From: Escherichia phage FP43
Sequence record: MN648445
Length of the DNA stretch: 64,000 bases
Strand: one strand, 5' to 3'
The translations under genes were made by a program, and so were the position numbers. The notes under the pieces were generated by a model, which worked only from the letters and a program-made list of their open reading frames with translations, was not told where the DNA came from and did no database searches. Shown here piece after piece: positions 2,467 to 63,245 of this stretch; the first letter of the stretch is position 1; the number at the start of each line of letters is the position of its first letter.

Positions 2467-2487
2467 TGGGGACCTTCGGGTCCCTTT
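2467..2487 (+). terminator. intrinsic terminator (TTCG tetraloop hairpin)
   Basis: GGGGACC TTCG GGTCCC then TTT. Confidence 0.6.
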
Positions 2488-2514
2488 AGGGGGTCAAAAT
2501 ATTTTTAAAAAGTA

Positions 2515-2543
2515 GTGTACATGCTTTTAGGATATGTTATTAT
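2515..2543 (+). promoter_or_regulatory. T4-early-type promoter
   Basis: -35 GTGTAC, 17-bp spacer, -10 TATTAT; followed by TATAGACCTATCAA. Confidence 0.5.
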
Positions 2544-2571
2544 AGACCTATCAAAACAAGAGGAGAATAAA

Positions 2572-3552
2572 ATGTTCAACGTTCAAATCAAAAAAGGTAT
2601 CTATCGTAATAACGAAATCTCTGGTTCTTATGTTGCCACAAAGACCTGGTTCCCGGCAAAGCTTAATCCTGAATGTTCCCACTTAGGTGATGGTAAAATT
2701 TTCGTTATGATTGATGGTTCTGAACGTGGAGTATGGGTCTTCAAATCAGACATCGTAATGGAAGGAGTTGAGACATCACCAGTTGCAGTTGTTGAAAGCA
2801 CTGAAGATATGAAAACTCGTATCAACAAACGCTTTAAAGTAATGAACATGATGACGAATGGCATTATCGATGGCAAAATTCGTTCACTCATTATTTCAGG
2901 TGCAGCTGGTATTGGTAAGACGTATTCTCTGGATAAAGCACTTAATAATGCTAATGATAATGGTTTCATCAAATACAAAAGCATTAATGGTAAAATCTCT
3001 GGTATTGGCCTTTACGAACAACTTTGGCTCAACCGTGATGCAGACAGCGTTCTCTTAATCGACGACGTTGACGTATTCTCAGATATGGACATCCTGAACC
3101 TTCTTAAAGCAGCATTAGATACCGGTGATAAACGCAAAGTTTGTTGGAGCACTGCATCATCTTATCTTGATGATAAGGGTATCGATAAAGAATTTGAGTT
3201 TGAAGGTACTATCGTTTTCATTACAAACGTTGATATCGATAAAGAGTTAGAACGTGGTTCGAAACTTGCTCCTCACCTTCAAGCTTTAGTATCTCGTTCA
3301 GTATATCTCGATCTTGGAGTACACTCTAATGAAGAGATTATGGTTCGAGTTGAAGATGTAATATTATCTACTGACATGATGCAGAAACGTGGCTTGACTG
3401 ATGCTGAAACGTATAAAGCATTGTCCTGGATGAAGGCTAATGTATCTCGTCTTCGCAATGTATCATTACGTACGGCTCTTTATGTAGCAGATTTTATTTC
3501 AACCGATAAAGATGGTTGGGAGGAAATCTCCGAAGTAACTTTACTGAAATAA
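2572..3552 (+). CDS. P-loop NTPase (AAA-like ATPase)
   Basis: Walker A GAAGIGKTY and Walker B LLIDDVD; start ATG 2572 after GAGGAG RBS and early promoter. Confidence 0.6.
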   Translation: MFNVQIKKGIYRNNEISGSYVATKTWFPAKLNPECSHLGDGKIFVMIDGSERGVWVFKSDIVMEGVETSPVAVVESTEDMKTRINKRFKVMNMMTNGIIDGKIRSLIISGAAGIGKTYSLDKALNNANDNGFIKYKSINGKISGIGLYEQLWLNRDADSVLLIDDVDVFSDMDILNLLKAALDTGDKRKVCWSTASSYLDDKGIDKEFEFEGTIVFITNVDIDKELERGSKLAPHLQALVSRSVYLDLGVHSNEEIMVRVEDVILSTDMMQKRGLTDAETYKALSWMKANVSRLRNVSLRTALYVADFISTDKDGWEEISEVTLLK

Positions 3553-3980: not shown

Positions 3981-4009
3981 GTTTACAAGGTCTATGGTTG
4001 TGTTATTAT
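3981..4009 (+). promoter_or_regulatory. T4-early-type promoter
   Basis: -35 GTTTAC, 17 bp, -10 TATTAT (TGT extended); IR AGGTCTAT/ATAGACCT brackets the -10. Confidence 0.55.
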
Positions 4010-4036
4010 AGACCTATCAACTACTGGAGGTAAAAC

Positions 4037-4564
4037 ATGAACGCTAAAGATATTTTCAACCTGGTAAATTATAACGACGGTAAATTTAAATCTGAAGCAC
4101 AAAGCAAGTTCTTTAATGACGTTGCTTATGGTAATGAGATTACCGTGGACGGAGGTCAGATTTTCAAATCTCGCTGGAATTGGATTGTTATCATAGATTC
4201 AGTTGGAATTGTGGAAGTCTACAAAAACACTAACAAAAAACGTACATTATTCTGGTCTCGTGAAACTAACGAACAGTACAAAAAGGATAAAGCATCTCGT
4301 TTATCCAAAGTAACCCAGGAAGATATCGAGTTTATCAAGAAAAATATCGAGATGTACGAAAATTTAATCGCTGAAGACCAGGCAGTACTCGATAAGTTTG
4401 ATGAAATTAAAGCTTCTCGTGAAATCCCTGACTTCATGAAAGAAACAGTAAACGAACGATACGCTCTCACTTCAGAACGTATTGCAAACTATACAAAACA
4501 GAAAGCAGAACGTATTAGTACTCTTCGGAAATTTGAAGAACGTTTAAAGACGGTTCACGCATAA
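4037..4564 (+). CDS. hypothetical protein
   Basis: 175-aa ORF; early promoter and GGAGG RBS upstream. Confidence 0.55.
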   Translation: MNAKDIFNLVNYNDGKFKSEAQSKFFNDVAYGNEITVDGGQIFKSRWNWIVIIDSVGIVEVYKNTNKKRTLFWSRETNEQYKKDKASRLSKVTQEDIEFIKKNIEMYENLIAEDQAVLDKFDEIKASREIPDFMKETVNERYALTSERIANYTKQKAERISTLRKFEERLKTVHA

Positions 4565-6641: not shown

Positions 6642-6671
6642 GTTTACAACCAAGGATGGTTGGAGTATAAT
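6642..6671 (+). promoter_or_regulatory. T4-early-type promoter (CCAAGGATGGTTGG family)
   Basis: GTTTACAACCAAGGATGGTTGGAGTATAAT. Confidence 0.55.
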
Positions 6672-9417: not shown

Positions 9418-9588
9418 ATGCAAGTTAAATTATTGTACCGTTTATTAAAAAATGGCAAGCATGATTGGTATTTGCTTATTAAAACCGATCCGAATTTTTT
9501 CTCTGGACAACCGTTTACAGTTCGTCCTACTAAACGTCAGCTTCGCAAAGCTAAACGTTCTCATCGTAACTTTTATAGAGAATATTGA
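9418..9588 (+). CDS. small basic protein
   Basis: ATG at 9418 within ORF 9391..9588; basic C-terminus. Confidence 0.3.
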   Translation: MQVKLLYRLLKNGKHDWYLLIKTDPNFFSGQPFTVRPTKRQLRKAKRSHRNFYREY

Positions 9589-9589
9589 T

Positions 9590-10003
9590 ATGAATATTTC
9601 TGAAACTCGCGGTAAATGGTTCAAGATTGTTAAAGAAGACGAAGAACTACAAGTCAAGTTTCCTGAATTAAAGAAAGGAACAATCATCAAGGTAATTGGT
9701 ACTACTACCGAAGATGGTTATGGCGACCATGGCATTATCGAAGTGATGTTGAACACAGGTGAGAAACTTTGCATCTATGACCGTGATACTTCTCTTTGGT
9801 GCTTCTGGGAATCCCATTCAATAGATGAACTCGAAGAAATTGACCAAGTAGTTTGTGATGGTGGACTTGGTGAATTCGAAGGTGAACGTATTTCTTATGC
9901 TTTAGCTAAATTAGCTTGTCAAGAAAATAATGACGGTTATGAAGGTAATCTGATGCAAGCCGCAGCGGAATACATTGAATATTTAGAAAGACGTTTAAGT
10001 TAA
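9590..10003 (+). CDS. hypothetical acidic protein
   Basis: ATG 9590 immediately after upstream stop; 137 aa. Confidence 0.45.
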   Translation: MNISETRGKWFKIVKEDEELQVKFPELKKGTIIKVIGTTTEDGYGDHGIIEVMLNTGEKLCIYDRDTSLWCFWESHSIDELEEIDQVVCDGGLGEFEGERISYALAKLACQENNDGYEGNLMQAAAEYIEYLERRLS

Positions 10004-13894: not shown

Positions 13895-14077
13895 ATGACA
13901 ATTGAAGATAAAGAAATTAAGGTTGACCAGTACTATTCTGTCAACGGTAATGCAGTACAGATAACCAGAGTTTCAAGCCTGGATGTTTGGTACCGTTCAA
14001 TCAAATATTCGGAAATTGGTGAAATGCTTTGTGACCGTGGTATCTTCTGTTCAATTGCAAAGGAAATTAAACCATGA
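13895..14077 (+). CDS. small hypothetical protein
   Basis: ATG 13895 after AGAGGA RBS and promoter. Confidence 0.35.
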   Translation: MTIEDKEIKVDQYYSVNGNAVQITRVSSLDVWYRSIKYSEIGEMLCDRGIFCSIAKEIKP

Positions 14078-15888: not shown

Positions 15889-16154
15889 AATTAACTCGAA
15901 TCAGTATAACTGAAGAAAAGCTGGGCGAATTTTACGTCGACAACTTTATGAAAGTTACGTATTTTCCATTTGTTAAAGGTGTCGGTTTTTGGGAACCTCA
16001 TGTATCTCAATTAAACGAAGGCGACTATAACGAAACACATGAGAACTTTTTAGATTTTCTTTATGGAGCTGGATTAACCGAGCTTTATATTGATATACAT
16101 GAGTTCAAACGTTTAATGGAAAAAGTATTCCAGGCGTATTGTTTGCTCCGATAG
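15885..16154 (+). CDS. hypothetical protein
   Basis: 89-aa ORF, ATGA overlap. Confidence 0.45.
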   Translation: MKLTRISITEEKLGEFYVDNFMKVTYFPFVKGVGFWEPHVSQLNEGDYNETHENFLDFLYGAGLTELYIDIHEFKRLMEKVFQAYCLLR

Positions 16155-16160
16155 TATCTC

Positions 16161-16205
16161 GTGCTTTAAGATAGGTCTCTAAATATTATGATATAATAGA
16201 CCTAT
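16161..16205 (+). promoter_or_regulatory. promoter-like element upstream of gene 55 (MotA-box-like TGCTTTA, -10 TATAAT)
   Basis: GTGCTTTAAG ... TATAAT; IR ATAGGTCT/AGACCTAT flanks it. Confidence 0.35.
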
Positions 16206-16226
16206 GAATTGAGCCAAGAGGTACTT

Positions 16227-37237: not shown

Positions 37238-37266
37238 GTTTACTTCTCCAGTAGTTGTGTTATTAT
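37238..37266 (+). promoter_or_regulatory. T4-early-type promoter
   Basis: -35 GTTTAC, 17 bp, -10 TATTAT; 10-bp perfect IR CCAGTAGTTG/CAACTACTGG brackets -10. Confidence 0.55.
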
Positions 37267-37292
37267 AGACCTATCAACTACTGGAGAACAAA

Positions 37293-37610
37293 ATGAAAAC
37301 CATCGATTGTAAAGCAGAATTTAAGATTTTTTATCACGGTTCAAGTAGTTCAGCTAACATCGAAAACATGCTTTGTCCTCCTGAAGAAACAGGAGTTCTG
37401 TCTGAAACCGGACGTAAGAAAAACTTGAATCGTGTATTCTTTACTGAAGATATCGGTTTAGCAAAGATTTATGCAGGACGAGCCGCACGCTCTTATGGAG
37501 GTGAACCGCGTCTCTATCGAGTAATTTCTCCGGTAGACGTAGTTCAAATGAATAATACTAAAGGTGCTACAGTTTATCACGCTGAATGGGCATTTTGCGA
37601 GGAAATATGA
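37293..37610 (+). CDS. hypothetical protein
   Basis: 105-aa ORF with early promoter. Confidence 0.45.
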   Translation: MKTIDCKAEFKIFYHGSSSSANIENMLCPPEETGVLSETGRKKNLNRVFFTEDIGLAKIYAGRAARSYGGEPRLYRVISPVDVVQMNNTKGATVYHAEWAFCEEI

Positions 37611-37795
37611 GCAAATTAACTAAAGTTACTTTTATTGGCTGGTTTAAAAGCGGCGAGATGTTCACTAAAGATATCATGTTATCAGGTGATCGTGAAGAAA
37701 TCGAGTGGGTTGCGGTACAACTTGCTGAAGTGAACAATGCATTAGTTAAAGCATTTATTAATGACGAGAAAGTTTTTGAAGCTGATTTTCGATAA
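37607..37795 (+). CDS. dmd: Dmd-like (discriminator of mRNA degradation; antitoxin against host RnlA/LsoA in T4)
   Basis: MSKLTKVTFIGWFKSGEMFTKDI...NNALVKAFINDEKVFEADFR resembles remembered T4 Dmd. Confidence 0.7.
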   Translation: MSKLTKVTFIGWFKSGEMFTKDIMLSGDREEIEWVAVQLAEVNNALVKAFINDEKVFEADFR

Positions 37796-37807
37796 TTTTA
37801 AAATAGC

Positions 37808-37838
37808 TGTTTACAAGCACCACATACTGTGTTACTAT
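37808..37838 (+). promoter_or_regulatory. T4-early-type promoter
   Basis: -35 GTTTAC, -10 TACTAT. Confidence 0.4.
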
Positions 37839-37866
37839 CTTTCTATCAACTACAGAGGAAATTGAA

Positions 37867-38549: not shown

Positions 38550-38579
38550 GTTTACATTATAGATGGACTATAGTATAGT
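38550..38579 (+). promoter_or_regulatory. T4-early-type promoter upstream of sp
   Basis: -35 GTTTAC, -10 TATAGT; GGACTA/TAGTCC inverted repeat. Confidence 0.4.
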
Positions 38580-41584: not shown

Positions 41585-42106
41585 ATGGCACACTTTAACG
41601 AATGTTCACAACTTATTTCTGGTGTTGATAAAGCAGAAGAAGCTTATTTTAATGCTCTGATTCACGAAGATAAAGACCCACTGCAGGTAATGCTTGATAT
41701 GCAGAAATCTTTACAGGTTCGTCTGGCAAATGACAAGCCTGAACATAACAAACATCCTGATGAATTGGCTACTGCTGGTGATGTTGTTGATTGGCTGCGT
41801 AATCAGAAAGATTATATTGATGATGAATTCCGTGAACTGCTGACTTCACTTGGTGGTATGAGCAATGGTGAAAAAGCCGCTAGCAGTGTATGGAAGCCAT
41901 GGAAAGCACAACATGCTGAATATCGAAATCGTCGTATCGATGAACTGTCTCCTGAAGACCAGCTTGAAATTAAATTTGAAATGATTGATATTCTGCATTT
42001 CGTTCTGAACATGTTCCAAGGTCTTGGTCTTTCTGCTGAAGAAATCTTTAAACTTTACTACTTGAAAAACCAACACAACTTTGAACGTCAGGATAATGGT
42101 TACTAA
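41585..42106 (+). CDS. 56: dCTP pyrophosphatase gp56 (MazG-like)
   Basis: MAHFNECSQLISGVDKAEE...; resembles remembered T4 gp56; syntenic next to 61. Confidence 0.8.
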   Translation: MAHFNECSQLISGVDKAEEAYFNALIHEDKDPLQVMLDMQKSLQVRLANDKPEHNKHPDELATAGDVVDWLRNQKDYIDDEFRELLTSLGGMSNGEKAASSVWKPWKAQHAEYRNRRIDELSPEDQLEIKFEMIDILHFVLNMFQGLGLSAEEIFKLYYLKNQHNFERQDNGY

Positions 42107-43915: not shown

Positions 43916-43943
43916 TTTACATTCCCTCCTCTCGTGTTATGAT
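43915..43943 (+). promoter_or_regulatory. T4-early-type promoter upstream of modB-like gene
   Basis: -35 GTTTAC, 17 bp, -10 TATGAT. Confidence 0.45.
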
Positions 43944-43970
43944 AGGCTTATCTTTAAATGGAGGTCTATC

Positions 43971-44552
43971 ATGACATGTCAATCTGAACTTCAAGAACGT
44001 GAATACCTAACAAATCTGATTGATAGCAAATTCACCCGCCAAGAACAAAACATTCTCTGGGCTTGCACCGATTCTAAGGAAGACCCGGATTTCCACTATG
44101 AATTAGACCATCTTGTTCGTAAGCATATGACTTCTACAGTACCAGTAGAACTCTACCGTGGTGTAACTCCAGAAGAAGTAGAACGTCTTTCTCTTCTTTC
44201 TGTTGGATGCCATTGGTCTCCTGGACGAGTAACATCGTTCACAACTGATTTCAGTACAGCTCGTCAATTCTCCGGGAGATGGGAATATCAGACGTACACT
44301 ATTCTTAGTCTCAGGAATGCTCCATTCATTTTTGATTACTACCAAAACATGGTTAACATTGTACTTGCCGGAAAGAATCCTAAGCATGTTATGGAAGAAA
44401 CGCGTGTTGATGTCCTAGATATGATTGAATCTGAACAAGAGTACATGGTCTCAGGTATCTCTAGATTTGAGATTGTGGAAATTGAAGACTTAGAATATGA
44501 CCCTTTATCTCGACTATACAAAATCATTCATTTAAAAATGTTGAATTTTTAG
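43971..44552 (+). CDS. modB: ADP-ribosyltransferase, ModB-like
   Basis: 193 aa; paralog of the next gene (shared ILW.C...VR...TS.VP...YRG); position matches T4 modB. Confidence 0.55.
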   Translation: MTCQSELQEREYLTNLIDSKFTRQEQNILWACTDSKEDPDFHYELDHLVRKHMTSTVPVELYRGVTPEEVERLSLLSVGCHWSPGRVTSFTTDFSTARQFSGRWEYQTYTILSLRNAPFIFDYYQNMVNIVLAGKNPKHVMEETRVDVLDMIESEQEYMVSGISRFEIVEIEDLEYDPLSRLYKIIHLKMLNF

Positions 44553-45292: not shown

Positions 45293-45321
45293 GTGTACAC
45301 TACCTGAGGGCATGATATTAT
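45293..45321 (+). promoter_or_regulatory. T4-early-type promoter
   Basis: -35 GTGTAC, 17 bp, -10 TATTAT; followed by TATAGACCTATCAG. Confidence 0.5.
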
Positions 45322-45370
45322 AGACCTATCAGCTAAATGACCTAACGTCCGTAAGACAGAGGAAAATATT

Positions 45371-46117
45371 ATGTTATCAAATAATAAAATTAACAAAATA
45401 AATCGTCGTCTTGACCACACCAGAGCTTCTGCGAAGAGACGCTCTAAGGATTTTAACTTAGACTTTAATTACCTTAAAAACATTCTTGATCAAAAGGTCT
45501 GCGCTTACTCAGGTGAATCTTTCAATAACTCTGTTGAAGGTGAGAAATTATCCTTAGAACGTTTTAATAACGATATCGGCTACATTAAAGGTAATGTTAT
45601 CCCAGTTAAGAAAAAATATAACACGGCTCGTTCTGATTTAACATTAGAAGAACTTATTGAGAAACGTGATGCCATTGCAAGGCGTATCGCTAATCCTTCT
45701 GCCCGTAAAGTAGAGAAACTTAATCTCGACGAGAAGAAATGGGCCCAAATTAAAAAGGTTTATGGTACTATTTTAAAAATCCGAGCAAAACGTGAAAATC
45801 GTGTTAAGCATATGGCGAACATGATGAAAAATCAACCTTTATCTAACGAATCTAAACTTAGAATTGTTGCTTTGAAAGCACGCATTAATGGCTCACATCA
45901 AGCAGAAGGCCATGAACTTACTAAACTCAACGTTCTTCTTAAAGGCTCTGACTGGAAAACTAAAACTAAATTAACTGACGCTGAATCGCTTTTCGATACA
46001 TATGATAAAGTTATCCAAGGTCTGCGACGTTTTGAAAAGATTGGTTTCATTGGTAAATTAAAATTGAAACGTGGCTTACCACTTAGCGCATCATTATTCC
46101 AACTGATTAAAGGTTAA
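45371..46117 (+). CDS. protein at the srd position (sigma-70-related in T4)
   Basis: 248 aa; assigned by synteny upstream of dda only. Confidence 0.45.
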   Translation: MLSNNKINKINRRLDHTRASAKRRSKDFNLDFNYLKNILDQKVCAYSGESFNNSVEGEKLSLERFNNDIGYIKGNVIPVKKKYNTARSDLTLEELIEKRDAIARRIANPSARKVEKLNLDEKKWAQIKKVYGTILKIRAKRENRVKHMANMMKNQPLSNESKLRIVALKARINGSHQAEGHELTKLNVLLKGSDWKTKTKLTDAESLFDTYDKVIQGLRRFEKIGFIGKLKLKRGLPLSASLFQLIKG

Positions 46118-48433: not shown

Positions 48434-48463
48434 GTTTACAACCAAGGATGGTTGGAGTATAAT
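48434..48463 (+). promoter_or_regulatory. T4-early-type promoter (CCAAGGATGGTTGG family)
   Basis: GTTTACAACCAAGGATGGTTGGAGTATAAT. Confidence 0.55.
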
Positions 48464-49939: not shown

Positions 49940-49969
49940 GTTTACTTCTCCTCTGGTTTTGATATTATA
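49940..49969 (+). promoter_or_regulatory. T4-early-type promoter
   Basis: -35 GTTTAC, -10 TATTAT; 11-bp IR CTCCTCTGGTT/AACCAGAGGAG brackets -10 and covers the RBS. Confidence 0.5.
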
Positions 49970-49994
49970 ACCATATCAACCAGAGGAGAATAAT

Positions 49995-50519
49995 ATGTTA
50001 GTTTACCGCGTAGAACGTAGTTTTTGTACTCAACGTGAATCATTACCAGGAATTGTTATCGAAGACGGTAAAGCCGTCAGAATTTGGGAAACCTCTTGGA
50101 ATAAAGAACCTCGCTCACCTTACGGTTGGTCTGGCACTGACAACTCTGAAGAAACATGGGAGTTCCTTGATAAGCATGGAATACTCTCAGGTAACTTCTA
50201 CCATCACGGCGACAACTATAATGTCCCTAATCGTCCTACAGTAAATGAAGACAAACTTCTTGAACAAAATATCTTAAGATACCATAGAATTGAGTACACA
50301 TTTGAATTGAGTGAAGATTGGGCTCAAGGGTTCTATTTTGGATTTGAAAGCGTTGACGCGGTTTATGCATGGTTTGATGACCAGGTGGATGTTGAACTCT
50401 TGAAAGCTAAAGGATACTACATCGCGGTCTATGAAGCACCTGATTTCATCCTCGGAAGTTGTCAATTAATGTTTAGACGTTCATTGGCAGAACAAGTTGA
50501 TTTTATTTTGCTAAAATGA
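49995..50519 (+). CDS. hypothetical protein
   Basis: 174-aa ORF with promoter and GAGGAG RBS. Confidence 0.5.
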   Translation: MLVYRVERSFCTQRESLPGIVIEDGKAVRIWETSWNKEPRSPYGWSGTDNSEETWEFLDKHGILSGNFYHHGDNYNVPNRPTVNEDKLLEQNILRYHRIEYTFELSEDWAQGFYFGFESVDAVYAWFDDQVDVELLKAKGYYIAVYEAPDFILGSCQLMFRRSLAEQVDFILLK

Positions 50520-50548
50520 TGTACAACAACTATGGCCTATGATACTAT
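50520..50548 (+). promoter_or_regulatory. T4-early-type promoter
   Basis: -35 TGTACA, 17 bp, -10 TACTAT; followed by TATAGACCTATCAA. Confidence 0.5.
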
Positions 50549-50576
50549 AGACCTATCAAAACAAGAGGAGAATATT

Positions 50577-50804
50577 ATGAAACGTCAAATCATTAAAAAC
50601 GTAACTACTGATTCAAACATCGATGAGTTTGAAGATGTTCTGTTTAATCCTGATTTAGTTGTTGTACAGAAAAACTGGACCGGATTTTTATGCTACACCG
50701 AAGTGGTTTACGTTTACGAAAAACTCGGTGATGAAATGCCTATCTACGGTATCTTCCGTGAAATCACTGAAAACGGTACAACTTATTGGAAGGAAACTTA
50801 CTAA
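50577..50804 (+). CDS. small hypothetical protein
   Basis: ATG 50577 after AGAGGAG RBS (cassette near-identical to 2538-2574). Confidence 0.4.
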
Positions 50805-59656: not shown

Positions 59657-59686
59657 GTTTACAACAAGGTAGGATTATGGTATAGT
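59657..59686 (+). promoter_or_regulatory. T4-early-type promoter
   Basis: -35 GTTTAC, 18 bp, -10 TATAGT; IR GTAGGA/TCCTAC. Confidence 0.4.
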
Positions 59687-59714
59687 AGTCCTACTGAAAC
59701 ATGAGGAACACAAA

Positions 59715-59915
59715 ATGGCTAAGCTTTTTAAAGATGTTGAAATTGGTGAAAAATTTGTTCTGAATAATGGTCAGCAGCTTATTCGTGTAGCTTCTATCGC
59801 CGGACAAACTCATAACTGTATCGCCCCAACGTGTTGGACTCGATTCTTTATTGAAGATGACACTGAATGTTTAACTGTTGAAGAGCTTTTTGAACGTTCT
59901 GATATAGCCGAATAA
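59715..59915 (+). CDS. small hypothetical protein
   Basis: 66-aa ORF with promoter and GAGGAA RBS. Confidence 0.4.
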   Translation: MAKLFKDVEIGEKFVLNNGQQLIRVASIAGQTHNCIAPTCWTRFFIEDDTECLTVEELFERSDIAE

Positions 59916-62108: not shown

Positions 62109-62184
62109 GTGCCCTAGCCTTAGGATTTCTAGGTGCAATAGCTGCACTAGTGATTTGGCTGTATTGGTTAGACAAACATGATTA

Positions 62185-62215
62185 GGGAGCTTCGGCTCCC
62201 TTTTGTGTTTTTTTC
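62185..62215 (+). terminator. intrinsic terminator (TTCG tetraloop) after gene 52
   Basis: GGGAGC TTCG GCTCCC then TTTTGTGTTTTTTT. Confidence 0.7.
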
Positions 62216-62224
62216 TCACAAAAC

Positions 62225-62253
62225 AGTTTACATGTGCTTCAAACGTGATATTA
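62225..62253 (+). promoter_or_regulatory. T4-early-type promoter
   Basis: -35 GTTTAC, 17 bp, -10 TATTAT; followed by TATAGACCTATCAA. Confidence 0.55.
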
Positions 62254-62293
62254 TAGACCTATCAAAACAAAACAACCAAATTGGAGAAATAAA

Positions 62294-62509
62294 ATGTCTA
62301 AAATGAAATTAACCCAAAACACAACTACTCGTTTCGGTAAAGTTAAACCTGGTATGAATGCTCCTCGTAAAGCACTTGTTGAAGAATTAAATTTCTTAGA
62401 AGTTGAAATCAATTCTTTAGTGGTTCGCGGTTCAAATGGACGTCATTTAGAAAAGCTTCGTTCTAAAAAGGCAAAACTTATTGGCCTTATTAAAGAAATG
62501 AGTTTGTAA
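62294..62509 (+). CDS. small basic protein
   Basis: 71-aa ORF with early promoter. Confidence 0.45.
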   Translation: MSKMKLTQNTTTRFGKVKPGMNAPRKALVEELNFLEVEINSLVVRGSNGRHLEKLRSKKAKLIGLIKEMSL

Positions 62510-62546
62510 ATTTTACCAGGGCTTTTTAAAAAGAGCCCAAAATAAA

Positions 62547-62575
62547 GTTTACTTTTGCTTCAAACATGATATTAT
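62547..62575 (+). promoter_or_regulatory. T4-early-type promoter upstream of motA
   Basis: -35 GTTTAC, 17 bp, -10 TATTAT; near-duplicate of 62225 cassette. Confidence 0.55.
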
Positions 62576-62612
62576 AGACCTATCAAAACAAATACTAATT
62601 TGGAGAAATAAA

Positions 62613-63245
62613 ATGTCTAAAGTTACTTACATCATCAAAGCTTCTGAAAACGCTCTGAATGAAAAAACTGCTGCAATAATGGTTTATATCATTAAGAACA
62701 ACTTCACCACTGCTGCCAATGTCCGTGAAGCCCTGGAAGCAGAATACAGTGCATCAGTTGTTAACTCTAACATTGGTGTATTGATTAAGAAAGGTTTAGT
62801 CGAAAAATCCGGTGATGGACTTGTAGCAACAGGCGAAGCAATGGATATTATCCAAAAAGCTGCAGACCTCTTTGCCCAAGAAAATGCTCCAGAACTTCTT
62901 CAGAAACGTAACACCAGAAAAGCACGTGGAGTTACTCCTGAAATGCATGAATTAGCAAACTTTGTTTTTGAAAATATTAAAGATAAAGTTGAAGTTAAAG
63001 AAATTGGTGAAAACCGTAGTAACTTAGAAGTTCGATTCGCTAAACGAGTTCTAGGCATTCGCCAAATTGAAATTCGACGAGATGGCGCTCTTAGAATCTT
63101 TGCATACAACATGTCAGAAACTGAATCAAAGCTGTTTACTTCTCTTGAAAATGATGTTAAGATTAAGATCGGTGGTAAATATACTTACATTGACTTCCCT
63201 AATGTGTCTAAAGAAATCATTACCCTTGTAACTAACGTACTGTGA
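62613..63245 (+). CDS. motA: middle-transcription activator MotA
   Basis: MSKVTYIIKASENALNEKTA...NSNIGVLIKKGLVEKSGDGL matches remembered T4 MotA. Confidence 0.9.
   Translation: MSKVTYIIKASENALNEKTAAIMVYIIKNNFTTAANVREALEAEYSASVVNSNIGVLIKKGLVEKSGDGLVATGEAMDIIQKAADLFAQENAPELLQKRNTRKARGVTPEMHELANFVFENIKDKVEVKEIGENRSNLEVRFAKRVLGIRQIEIRRDGALRIFAYNMSETESKLFTSLENDVKIKIGGKYTYIDFPNVSKEIITLVTNVL

Follow-up and report, generated by a model that had tools for sequence, protein, structure and literature searches.

Why should two nearly identical cassettes, each running from a promoter to a ribosome-binding site (RBS) and start codon, stand one behind the other upstream of motA, the gene for the activator of middle transcription, in Escherichia phage FP43 (MN648445), and why should the sequence around their -10 elements recur in front of other genes? 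An earlier note on the 64,000-nt stretch analysed here (hereafter the window) had offered two alternatives, namely that promoter cassettes are copied as units in front of different genes, or that a conserved initial transcribed sequence is selected. Our analysis supports both at once, a conserved start-site sequence and recombining cassettes. We consider it highly probable that the two cassettes, P1 and P2, belong to the sigma-70-type early-promoter/stem-loop (PeSL) family, functional blocks common to the whole promoter class that double as recombination crossover points.

Shigella phage SHSML-52-1, a Mosigvirus of the RB69 group (Straboviridae, Tevenvirinae), is 99% identical over the 2.5 kb around P1 and P2; its annotation there lists DNA topoisomerase II (gene 52), a hypothetical protein and the MotA activator of middle transcription. 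These 2.5 kb are also matched by hundreds of T4-like phages. Over the whole window, identity to SHSML-52-1 is 90–98%, with a handful of structural differences. Window GC content is 35–38% and GC skew is positive throughout, as expected for a one-strand block of early genes. The complete T4 and SHSML-52-1 genomes were assembled for comparison, and candidate early promoters on the early strand were aligned on their -10 hexamers; the T4 early-promoter information content was recomputed from the T4 genome instead of being taken from the published logo. The motA slot was surveyed in the GenBank phage collection, and a MotA-based locus search of IMG/VR returned only 8 loci.

Judged by its surroundings, the repeated motif is the start-site region of predicted T4-like early promoters. 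The 14-mer TATAGACCTATCAA occurs exactly at 2541, 4007, 37264, 50546, 62252 and 62573 and with one mismatch at 45319, always on the plus strand; the seven sites listed earlier were placed correctly to within 1–2 bases, and the variant form mentioned with them exists (TATAGTAGTCCTATC at 38574, with similar forms after promoters 59145 and 59657). When up to three mismatches are allowed, the window contains 20 matches against 8.0 ± 3.0 in shuffled sequences, none of 100 shuffles reaching 20. Each exact copy lies 17–18 bp 3' of GTTTAC, GTGTAC or ATGTAC and 25–50 nt 5' of a GGAG/GAGG RBS followed by ATG. SHSML-52-1 holds nine exact copies and T4 one; a search of IMG/VR with the 17-mer TATTATAGACCTATCAA gave 24 exact matches, most of them on contigs whose size is that of a T4-like genome. 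The sole exact T4 copy is on the minus strand at ~65374–65387, between ipII and denV and upstream of denV.

The motif had been described as following the -10, which holds for its 3' part; its first six bases, TATTAT, are the -10 hexamer itself, located at P1 and P2 17 bp after GTTTAC and directly preceded by TGn. The true extension, AGACCTATCAA, covers -6 to +5, that is, the discriminator (-6 to -4), the predicted start and +2 to +5. Its core, CCTATC, mostly with A-rich sequence behind it, spans -3 to +3, and spacing from the promoter elements would place +1 at its A; ahead of it the sequence is degenerate among promoters (AGA, AGT or GAA). Many of the sites have TATTAT or TATAGT as their -10, and homology to T4 suggests early timing for the cassette promoters. 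Upstream of gene 55 (window 16160–16210), the core forms the 3' arm of a hairpin, ATAGGTCTcTAAATAttatgaTATAATAGACCTAT, which encloses a late-promoter-like CTAAATA and a TATAAT; the GTTTAC -35 is absent there.

The core characterises early promoters as a class throughout the Mosigvirus lineage, extending beyond promoters that resemble one another by copying. Among the 30 SHSML-52-1 promoters, C occupies -3 in 24 and -2 in 23, T occupies -1 in 26, A occupies +1 in 24, T occupies +2 in 21 and C occupies +3 in 18. Information per position from -3 to +3 amounts to 0.6–1.3 bits in this set, compared with 0.08–0.40 bits in T4 (n=28). Further sets were formed by restriction to exact GTTTAC promoters and by removal of promoters with mutually similar flanks. 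In SHSML-52-1 the six positions then summed to 5.9 bits (n=24), 4.8 bits (n=14 after de-duplication) and 5.6 bits (n=9), where the matching T4 sets gave 1.8, 1.6 and 1.7 bits. CCTATC with at most one mismatch is found in 19 of the 30 promoters versus 2 of 28 in T4. A conserved initial transcribed sequence is therefore borne out, and the motif is more than the T4 early-promoter consensus, given 4.8–5.9 bits against 1.6–1.8.

In sigma-70 promoters, start-site features of this type are consistent with tuning of start choice, open-complex or escape properties. The core supplies a pyrimidine(-1)/purine(+1) start, a frequent G at -5 and an A-rich unstructured 5' end, and its predicted function is that it probably helps to make very strong promoters for host RNA polymerase. 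The stronger core of the RB69 lineage is not entirely new: among 57 predicted RB69 early promoters, a preference for C at -3 to -1 was already remarked (Nolan et al. 2006, PMC1524935), and T4 early promoters are described as having extra consensus regions beyond UP, -35, TGn and -10 (Hinton 2010, PMC2988021). The literature searched gave nothing directly useful on T4-type start-site mapping or motA autoregulation.

Resemblance between P1 and P2 goes well beyond what the consensus predicts. The two copies form direct repeats in two blocks, 62217–62271 versus 62538–62592 (55 nt, 89% identity, spacing 321 bp) and 62266–62302 versus 62585–62621 (37 nt, 84%, 319 bp), the spacings differing because of a 2-nt indel in the leader; the longest stretches without a mismatch measure 26 nt (TGATATTATAGACCTATCAAAACAAA) and 22 nt (TTGGAGAAATAAAATGTCTAAA). 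Aligned with gaps from the -35 to ATG+9, P1 and P2 reach an identity of 88%, more than any other of the 120 promoter pairs (median 61%, standard deviation 6%), in agreement with the near-identity first noticed for this pair. Ungapped similarity also lay above all 2000 column-shuffled nulls, in which the consensus is kept and the linkage between columns broken; ungapped statistics under-rate P1/P2 because of the leader indel, and gapped alignment was therefore added. As had been observed, both downstream genes start with MSK, the repeat running through codon 3 (ORF71, an open reading frame (ORF) beginning MSKMKLTQ; motA, MSKVTYIIK). The idea that ORF71 borrowed this start from motA was rejected, as its family, PHROG 6200, natively begins M-S/N-K and the homolog in phage JS98 begins MNK.

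P1/P2 (62226/62547) is one of four window pairs above the 99th percentile of the null maximum, the others being 6642/48434, 3981/37238 and 59145/59657; several SHSML-52-1 pairs and one T4 pair (136336/123093, 82%) also exceed it. Two of these window pairs add to those first reported, 3981/37238 (77%) and 6642/48434 (79%, identical over 30 nt from -35 to -10). The other pair proposed at the outset, 2515/50519, has 29 identical bases (TATAGACCTATCAAAACAAGAGGAGAATA) from the -10 to the RBS, and its upstream halves differ. Copying of whole cassettes as units needs refinement: promoter halves and leader halves appear to recombine separately, and the pattern is rather that small genes enter and leave between cassettes that stay in place.

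Evidence for such movement comes from the motA slot of relatives. Alignment shows that Mosigviruses JK36 and JM10 have a single cassette, of P1 type through the RBS and fused to motA right after ATGTCTAAA, and an IMG/VR contig (L010) with a MotA 100% identical to that of the window has the same short form. ORF71 is absent from all three. The short form spans 582–584 bp against the 901-bp query, and the missing 319 bp equal the spacing of the 3' repeat blocks, that is, one repeat unit composed of ORF71, stem-loop 2 and one cassette. The ORF71 family is present in 75 Mosigvirus-level and ~18 Dhakavirus records, and the slot is matched at 95–99% identity by 145 records; roughly half of the Mosigvirus records are without ORF71, a proportion that combines two BLAST summaries and may be distorted by partial records.

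Other relatives carry different cargo at the same position. In Dhakavirus JS98, the slot reads stem-loop 1, P1, an ORF71 homolog (MNKMKNTQ...), stem-loop 2, P2 and motA; Dhakavirus MN04, of the same species, has identical flanks and an unrelated ORF of 75 amino acids (aa; PHROG 10955) between ...TACTATAGACCTATCAA and stem-loop 2. In Tequatrovirus Sf21 and the IMG/VR contigs L013 and L014, a T4-type motA promoter, GTTTACaaccaaagcatactgtggTACTATacaaCTATCAA, is joined exactly at CTATCAA to a Dhakavirus-type leader, followed by ORF75, stem-loop 2 and a Dhakavirus-type P2, and T4-type motA is then rejoined within AAAATGTCTAAA. Read from these junctions, the crossovers must have used conserved patches of 7 nt and 12 nt between otherwise diverged genomes. 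A distant T4-like contig (L012, MotA identity 52%) has a third unrelated ORF between duplicated cassettes; T4, L016 and L017 have only a single promoter at motA. A Pfam search of four cargo ORFs gave no match. At ~2085–2110 of L014 (IMG/VR 2974787500), the gene 52 terminator is joined directly to the promoter spacer (ggctctcc to aaagcatactgtgg), the -35 of the upstream cassette being deleted, a junction resembling the degraded half-PeSLs described in Comeau 2014.

Within each lineage the two copies track one another. Between P1 and P2 of the window, the leader halves (+6 to ATG+9) agree at 86%, compared with 68% and 74% to their JS98 orthologs; in JS98 the two leaders are 57% identical to each other, and its two promoter halves match at 100%. 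TATTAT as the -10 and TGCTTCA in the spacer are common to the two Mosigvirus copies, TACTAT and TGCTTTA to the two JS98 copies. This pattern of concerted evolution indicates, as a signature in the sequences, gene conversion or repeated recombination between the repeats. The motA leader of the short form is of the Mosigvirus P1 type, not of the T4/JS98 motA type (CGGAGATTA...), so that by parsimony the short form would be a deletion derivative and not an ancestor.

Cassette blocks also mark several structural differences between the window and SHSML-52-1. At the 2515 locus, SHSML-52-1 has an upstream cassette (P1 of that locus), gp223 (72 aa, PHROG 6001) and a downstream cassette (its P2) ahead of a gene beginning MFNVQIK; the window promoter is a chimera, with P1 sequence up to GGAGAA and P2 sequence after it, and gp223 is absent. 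The SHSML-52-1 P2 at gp223 is of the motA-type family and 75% identical to the P1 of its own motA slot, the top pair in that genome. At 37787–37843, the upstream halves of the promoter differ between the phages, and a 46-aa ORF is found in SHSML-52-1 only, the junction lying in CTATCAACTA. At 13898, the window contains an additional ORF whose insertion point is precisely the ATG that follows a promoter. Overall, three of eight structural differences fall within ~3% of the sequence (rough binomial P ~0.01). Those without a cassette link are an ORF at 9577–9996, a longer ORF end at 15965–16150, ~370 bp at 42069 and a homing-endonuclease gene in nrdD. The last is a 1-kb insertion that splits nrdD at 158385–159426 of SHSML-52-1 and is absent at window ~11040. 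Small ORFs in the window that the 97%-identical SHSML-52-1 does not have lie at 2203–2463, 9591–10000 and 13896–14076; the extra window ORFs comprise an 86-aa signal-peptide protein (PHROG 2243), an ORF of ~136 aa and one of ~59 aa at the start codon behind a promoter with the -10 TAAGAT.

A cassette comprises a stem-loop, an AT-rich UP region, the -35 GTTTAC, TGn with the -10, the core, an A/C-rich leader, GGAG and ATG. We propose that its conserved blocks would be recognised as functional signals by host RNA polymerase, by the ribosome and by RegB; because they are short and nearly invariant, and present in many copies, they may also serve as crossover points for the active recombination system of the phage. 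Recombination between P1 and P2 would remove ORF71 and one repeat, giving the short form of the relatives, gene conversion would keep the P1 and P2 copies alike in each lineage, and crossovers at the core or at the RBS/ATG block would swap unrelated cargo ORFs into the motA slot.

Pure functional convergence offers a simpler account, in which each gene independently needs the same optimal promoter, leader and RBS and recombination plays no part. It fits the class-wide occurrence of the core, -35, -10 and GGAG blocks, which survives de-duplication, and the agreement of GGAG(A)ATAAAATG with a known functional consensus. We nevertheless hold it to be highly improbable, since the spacers and leaders of P1 and P2 agree even at positions that are free to vary elsewhere, lineage-specific substitutions are common to both paralogs, and precise deletions of one repeat unit as well as cargo swaps exist; moreover, the orthologous JS98 and T4 leaders differ, so the P1/P2 leader sequence is not required for motA expression. 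Scarcely any credence is left for chance, or for one recent local duplication without general significance. An identity of 88% is reached by only one window pair, as such an event would have it, but repeat–cargo–repeat arrangements of the same design, holding other cargo, are seen again in Dhakavirus, in Tequatrovirus and on a T4-like contig that is more distant, and the further pairs in the window, SHSML-52-1 and T4 exceed the null. The ORF71 arrangement is common to two genera and must therefore be old, yet the repeats are still alike.

The core, which includes a small palindrome (ATAGnnCTAT), might alternatively be a dedicated protein site, either an operator for a phage factor that shuts off early transcription or the target of a site-specific recombinase moving ORF cassettes in an integron-like manner, which we judge unlikely. 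That it is much stronger than in T4 and that three breakpoints coincide with it would suit such a site; in addition, the mechanism of T4 early-promoter shut-off is stated to be unknown (PMC2988021), and Arbiol and colleagues left site-specific recombination open (PMC2839356). However, further breakpoints map to the RBS/ATG block, which is what recombination at any short conserved patch would produce. No protein emerged as a candidate recombinase or repressor, the position of the core is precisely that at which RNA polymerase itself reads the DNA (discriminator and start site), and the motif varies across promoters ahead of CCTATC. We regard as very unlikely the specific proposal that the core CCTATCAA, sharpened in the RB69 and JS98 lineages relative to T4, would be a dedicated recognition site, whether a preferred crossover point for cassette exchange or an early shut-off operator; in the former case, small ORFs would be movable between genera at fixed slots such as that upstream of motA.

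Some observations tell against recombining PeSL-type cassettes as we have described them. The promoter sets come from a consensus scan, with possible false positives or missed weak promoters, and no transcription start-site or promoter-activity data for FP43 were found in the literature searched. Stem-loop 2 is without a T-run and was not called a terminator, and the motif-bearing promoters 45293 and 50519 have no significant stem-loop in the fold test. The enrichment of structural differences at cassette blocks is a rough estimate, and deletion rather than insertion at the motA slot follows from parsimony applied to leader similarity. Finally, a breakpoint at the 3' edge of a shared block marks the end of homology, not necessarily the site of strand exchange, and Sf21 alone provides a crossover that can be placed in the 7-nt core.

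The anatomy of the cassettes is given in Table 1. Stem-loop 1, a terminator-like hairpin behind gene 52, makes up the 5' portion of the first cassette. AT-rich stretches lie 5' of both promoters (62202–62225 at P1, 62539–62546 at P2), and the promoter scan gave P1 10 of 12 consensus matches, with TG present.

Table 1. Features of the P1/P2 region and of other early-promoter cassettes in the window.
Feature	Position	Strand	Details
Stem-loop 1, AGGGAGCTTCGGCTCCCT + T-run	62184..62211	+	Hairpin 62184–62201; terminator scan; fold -20.9 kcal/mol, z = -4.6
Early promoter P1 (predicted)	62226..62254	+	-35 GTTTAC 62226–62231; 17-nt spacer with TGCTTCA; TGn 62246–62248; -10 TATTAT 62249–62254
P1 post-(-10) core AGACCTATCAA	62255..62265	+	CCTATC 62258–62263; predicted start A 62261
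P1 leader, 3' block of repeat copy 1	62266..62302	+	A/C-rich; GGAG 62283–62286; ATG 62294–62296; codons 2–3 TCTAAA
Cargo ORF71, 71 aa (MSKMKLTQ...)	62294..62509	+	PHROG 6200, function unknown
Stem-loop 2, GGGCTTTT/AGAGCCC	62519..62538	+	Between ORF71 and P2; -11.0 kcal/mol, z = -2.6
Early promoter P2 (predicted motA promoter)	62547..62575	+	GTTTAC; 17-nt spacer with TGCTTCA; TGn; -10 TATTAT 62570–62575
P2 core AGACCTATCAA and leader	62576..62621	+	Core 62576–62586; predicted +1 62582; GGAG 62602–62605; motA ATG 62613–62615; codons 2–3
motA, activator of middle transcription	62613..63245	+	Annotation of 99%-identical SHSML-52-1; MSKVTYIIK matches T4 MotA
Stem-loop, promoter, core and GAGGAGAATAAAATG	2469..2572	+	GTGTAC 2515, -10 2538; chimera of two SHSML-52-1 cassettes flanking gp223
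Early promoter cassette (predicted)	3981..4039	+	Inverted repeat AGGTCTAT/ATAGACCT across -10; 77% identical to 37238 cassette
Early promoter cassette (predicted)	37238..37295	+	14-bp inverted repeat TTCTCCAGTAGTTG/CAACTACTGGAGAA enclosing -10, core and Shine-Dalgarno; -21.7 kcal/mol, z = -6.1
Early promoter GTGTAC (predicted)	45293..45373	+	Core with one mismatch (...CTATCAG); long leader
Promoter (predicted), weak -35 ATGTAC, -10 TACTAT	50519..50579	+	Core and leader identical to 2515 cassette over 29 nt

The early-gene strand carries every cassette counted, ~20 for the window and 30 for SHSML-52-1. Upstream hairpins accompany the promoters P1, P2, 2515 and 36804, and eight promoters (3981, 14540, 37238, 38550, 43915, 49940, 59145 and 59657) have an inverted repeat across the -10, with either the post-(-10) core or the Shine-Dalgarno sequence as its 3' arm. 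Long inverted repeats reach from the spacer to the Shine-Dalgarno at 37244–37291, 49946–49990 and 43933–43979 (z = -6.1, -6.4 and -4.5). In these, read-through RNA would sequester the RBS and RNA from the own promoter would not, an arrangement resembling the known translational control of T4 lysozyme (gene e) and soc type.

Some cassettes have relatives in T4. The 30-nt stretch shared by 6642–6671 and 48434–48463 is GTTTACAACCAAGGATGGTTGGAGTATAAT, with different downstream halves, and the T4 promoters at ~2458 and ~50973 have a related spacer, ccacaaggatgtgg; such cross-genus spacer conservation suggests function or very old cassette families. The T4 promoters at ~136336 and ~123093, on the minus strand, are 82% identical over 76 nt, and their downstream half (TATAGTAGTCTTACT.ACATAACATGAGGAACACAAAATG) closely resembles the window cassette at 59657–59720, which lies near ndd, at a map position different from that of the T4 pair.

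Two sequence elements within the cassettes recall known phage regulators. The consensus for a strong RegB/S1 site, expected in an intergenic translation-initiation region free of structure, is GG*AGRAYARAA (Uzan and Miller 2010, PMC3014915). At the 2515 cassette, GGAGAATAAAA agrees with it at 11 of 11 positions and GGAGAATAAAATG is a perfect fit, whereas GGAGAAATAAAA of the motA-type cassettes fits only with one extra A; regB is encoded by the close relative SHSML-52-1. The GGAG(A)ATAAAATG block is a translation-initiation region that, with this reservation, fits the RegB/S1 cleavage consensus, cleavage being a prediction.

In addition, each motA-type cassette has a MotA-box-like heptamer, TGCTT(C/T)A, within its spacer, at about -26 to -20 (window 62235–62241 and 62556–62562). 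It is also found in the SHSML-52-1 cassette at 150252 (L009 ~261), in JS98 (L046 ~383 and ~708) and in L012 (~2073 and ~2442, with CGCTTTA in one L012 copy), and is kept across lineages with MotA only 52% identical and absent from the T4 motA promoter. It could be a candidate site for autoregulation by MotA of its own early promoter. P1 and P2 were rejected as MotA-dependent middle promoters, for which a MotA box, (a/t)(a/t)(a/t)TGCTT(t/c)A, 11–13 bp upstream of a TAnnnT -10 was the criterion: TGCTTCA, found in both spacers, lies 7 bp from TATTAT, not 11–13 bp, and no TAnnnT hexamer occurs 11–13 bp downstream of it.

Collectively, the locus provides a base-resolved example of small accessory-gene exchange in T4-like phages, in which, over four lineages, the motA slot is either without an ORF or occupied by one of at least three unrelated ones and breakpoints fall in regulatory blocks of 7–22 nt. 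It extends the PeSL model to Mosigvirus and Dhakavirus, groups widely used in phage therapy collections, and illustrates how regulatory consensus sequences may double as recombination substrates. For annotation, such repeats are to be read as promoters rather than as unexplained repeats, and small early ORFs present or absent between close isolates are to be expected. The lineage-specific strengthening of the core, only hinted at in 2006, raises a small question of promoter design.

The elements described here are of a known kind, in a phage group where they had not been explicitly described before, and do not constitute a new system. PeSLs are ~100-bp composite motifs that combine an early promoter with a stem-loop and end, on the 3' side, in the Shine-Dalgarno and start codon of the following gene; they cluster in variable regions and mark the junctions at which close relatives differ by indels or replacements, and excised mini-circles have been shown experimentally (Arbiol 2010, PMC2839356; Comeau 2014, PMC4122927), the assays of Arbiol 2010 being inverse PCR on infected cells and, for promoter and terminator activity, reporter fusions. 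P1 and P2 agree in their stem-loop, AT-rich region, -35/-10 arrangement (TTTACW N17 TAYWAT in the T4/PST group; TTTACA-16-TATTAT at P1 and TTTACT-16-TATTAT at P2, both with TGn), Shine-Dalgarno and start codon, in belonging to a multi-copy family and in their association with indels and replacements. As with PeSLs, the repeats are spread over early regions, mostly before small ORFs of unknown function, with direct repeats flanking single ORFs, and are found at indel and replacement junctions between close relatives. PeSLs were, however, described for RB49/phi1, PST/T4 and nt-1/KVP40 and not for the RB69 (Mosigvirus) or JS98 (Dhakavirus) groups; the FP43 core CCTATC(A/T)A adds a further block of strong conservation, at which breakpoints also fall, insertions recur at the motA slot in different genera, and mini-circles would be a prediction for FP43.

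Three further systems invite comparison. The early promoters of T4, a class read by unmodified host sigma-70 RNA polymerase directly upon infection and with a consensus reportedly due to Liebig and Rueger and to Wilkens and Rueger, share the GTTTAC -35, TGn with the -10, the A-rich UP region and a position upstream of orthologous early genes (motA and others), and they differ in the -3 to +3 information, which is about three times greater in Mosigvirus. Like RegB/S1 sites, the cassettes end in GGAG followed by A-rich sequence, the extra A of the motA type being the difference. Integron gene cassettes, an analogy only, are likewise single ORFs of promoterless size exchanged at a fixed slot between short conserved repeats; here, in contrast, there is no integrase and no folded site of attC type, each phage cassette has its own promoter, and the exchange looks like short-homology recombination.

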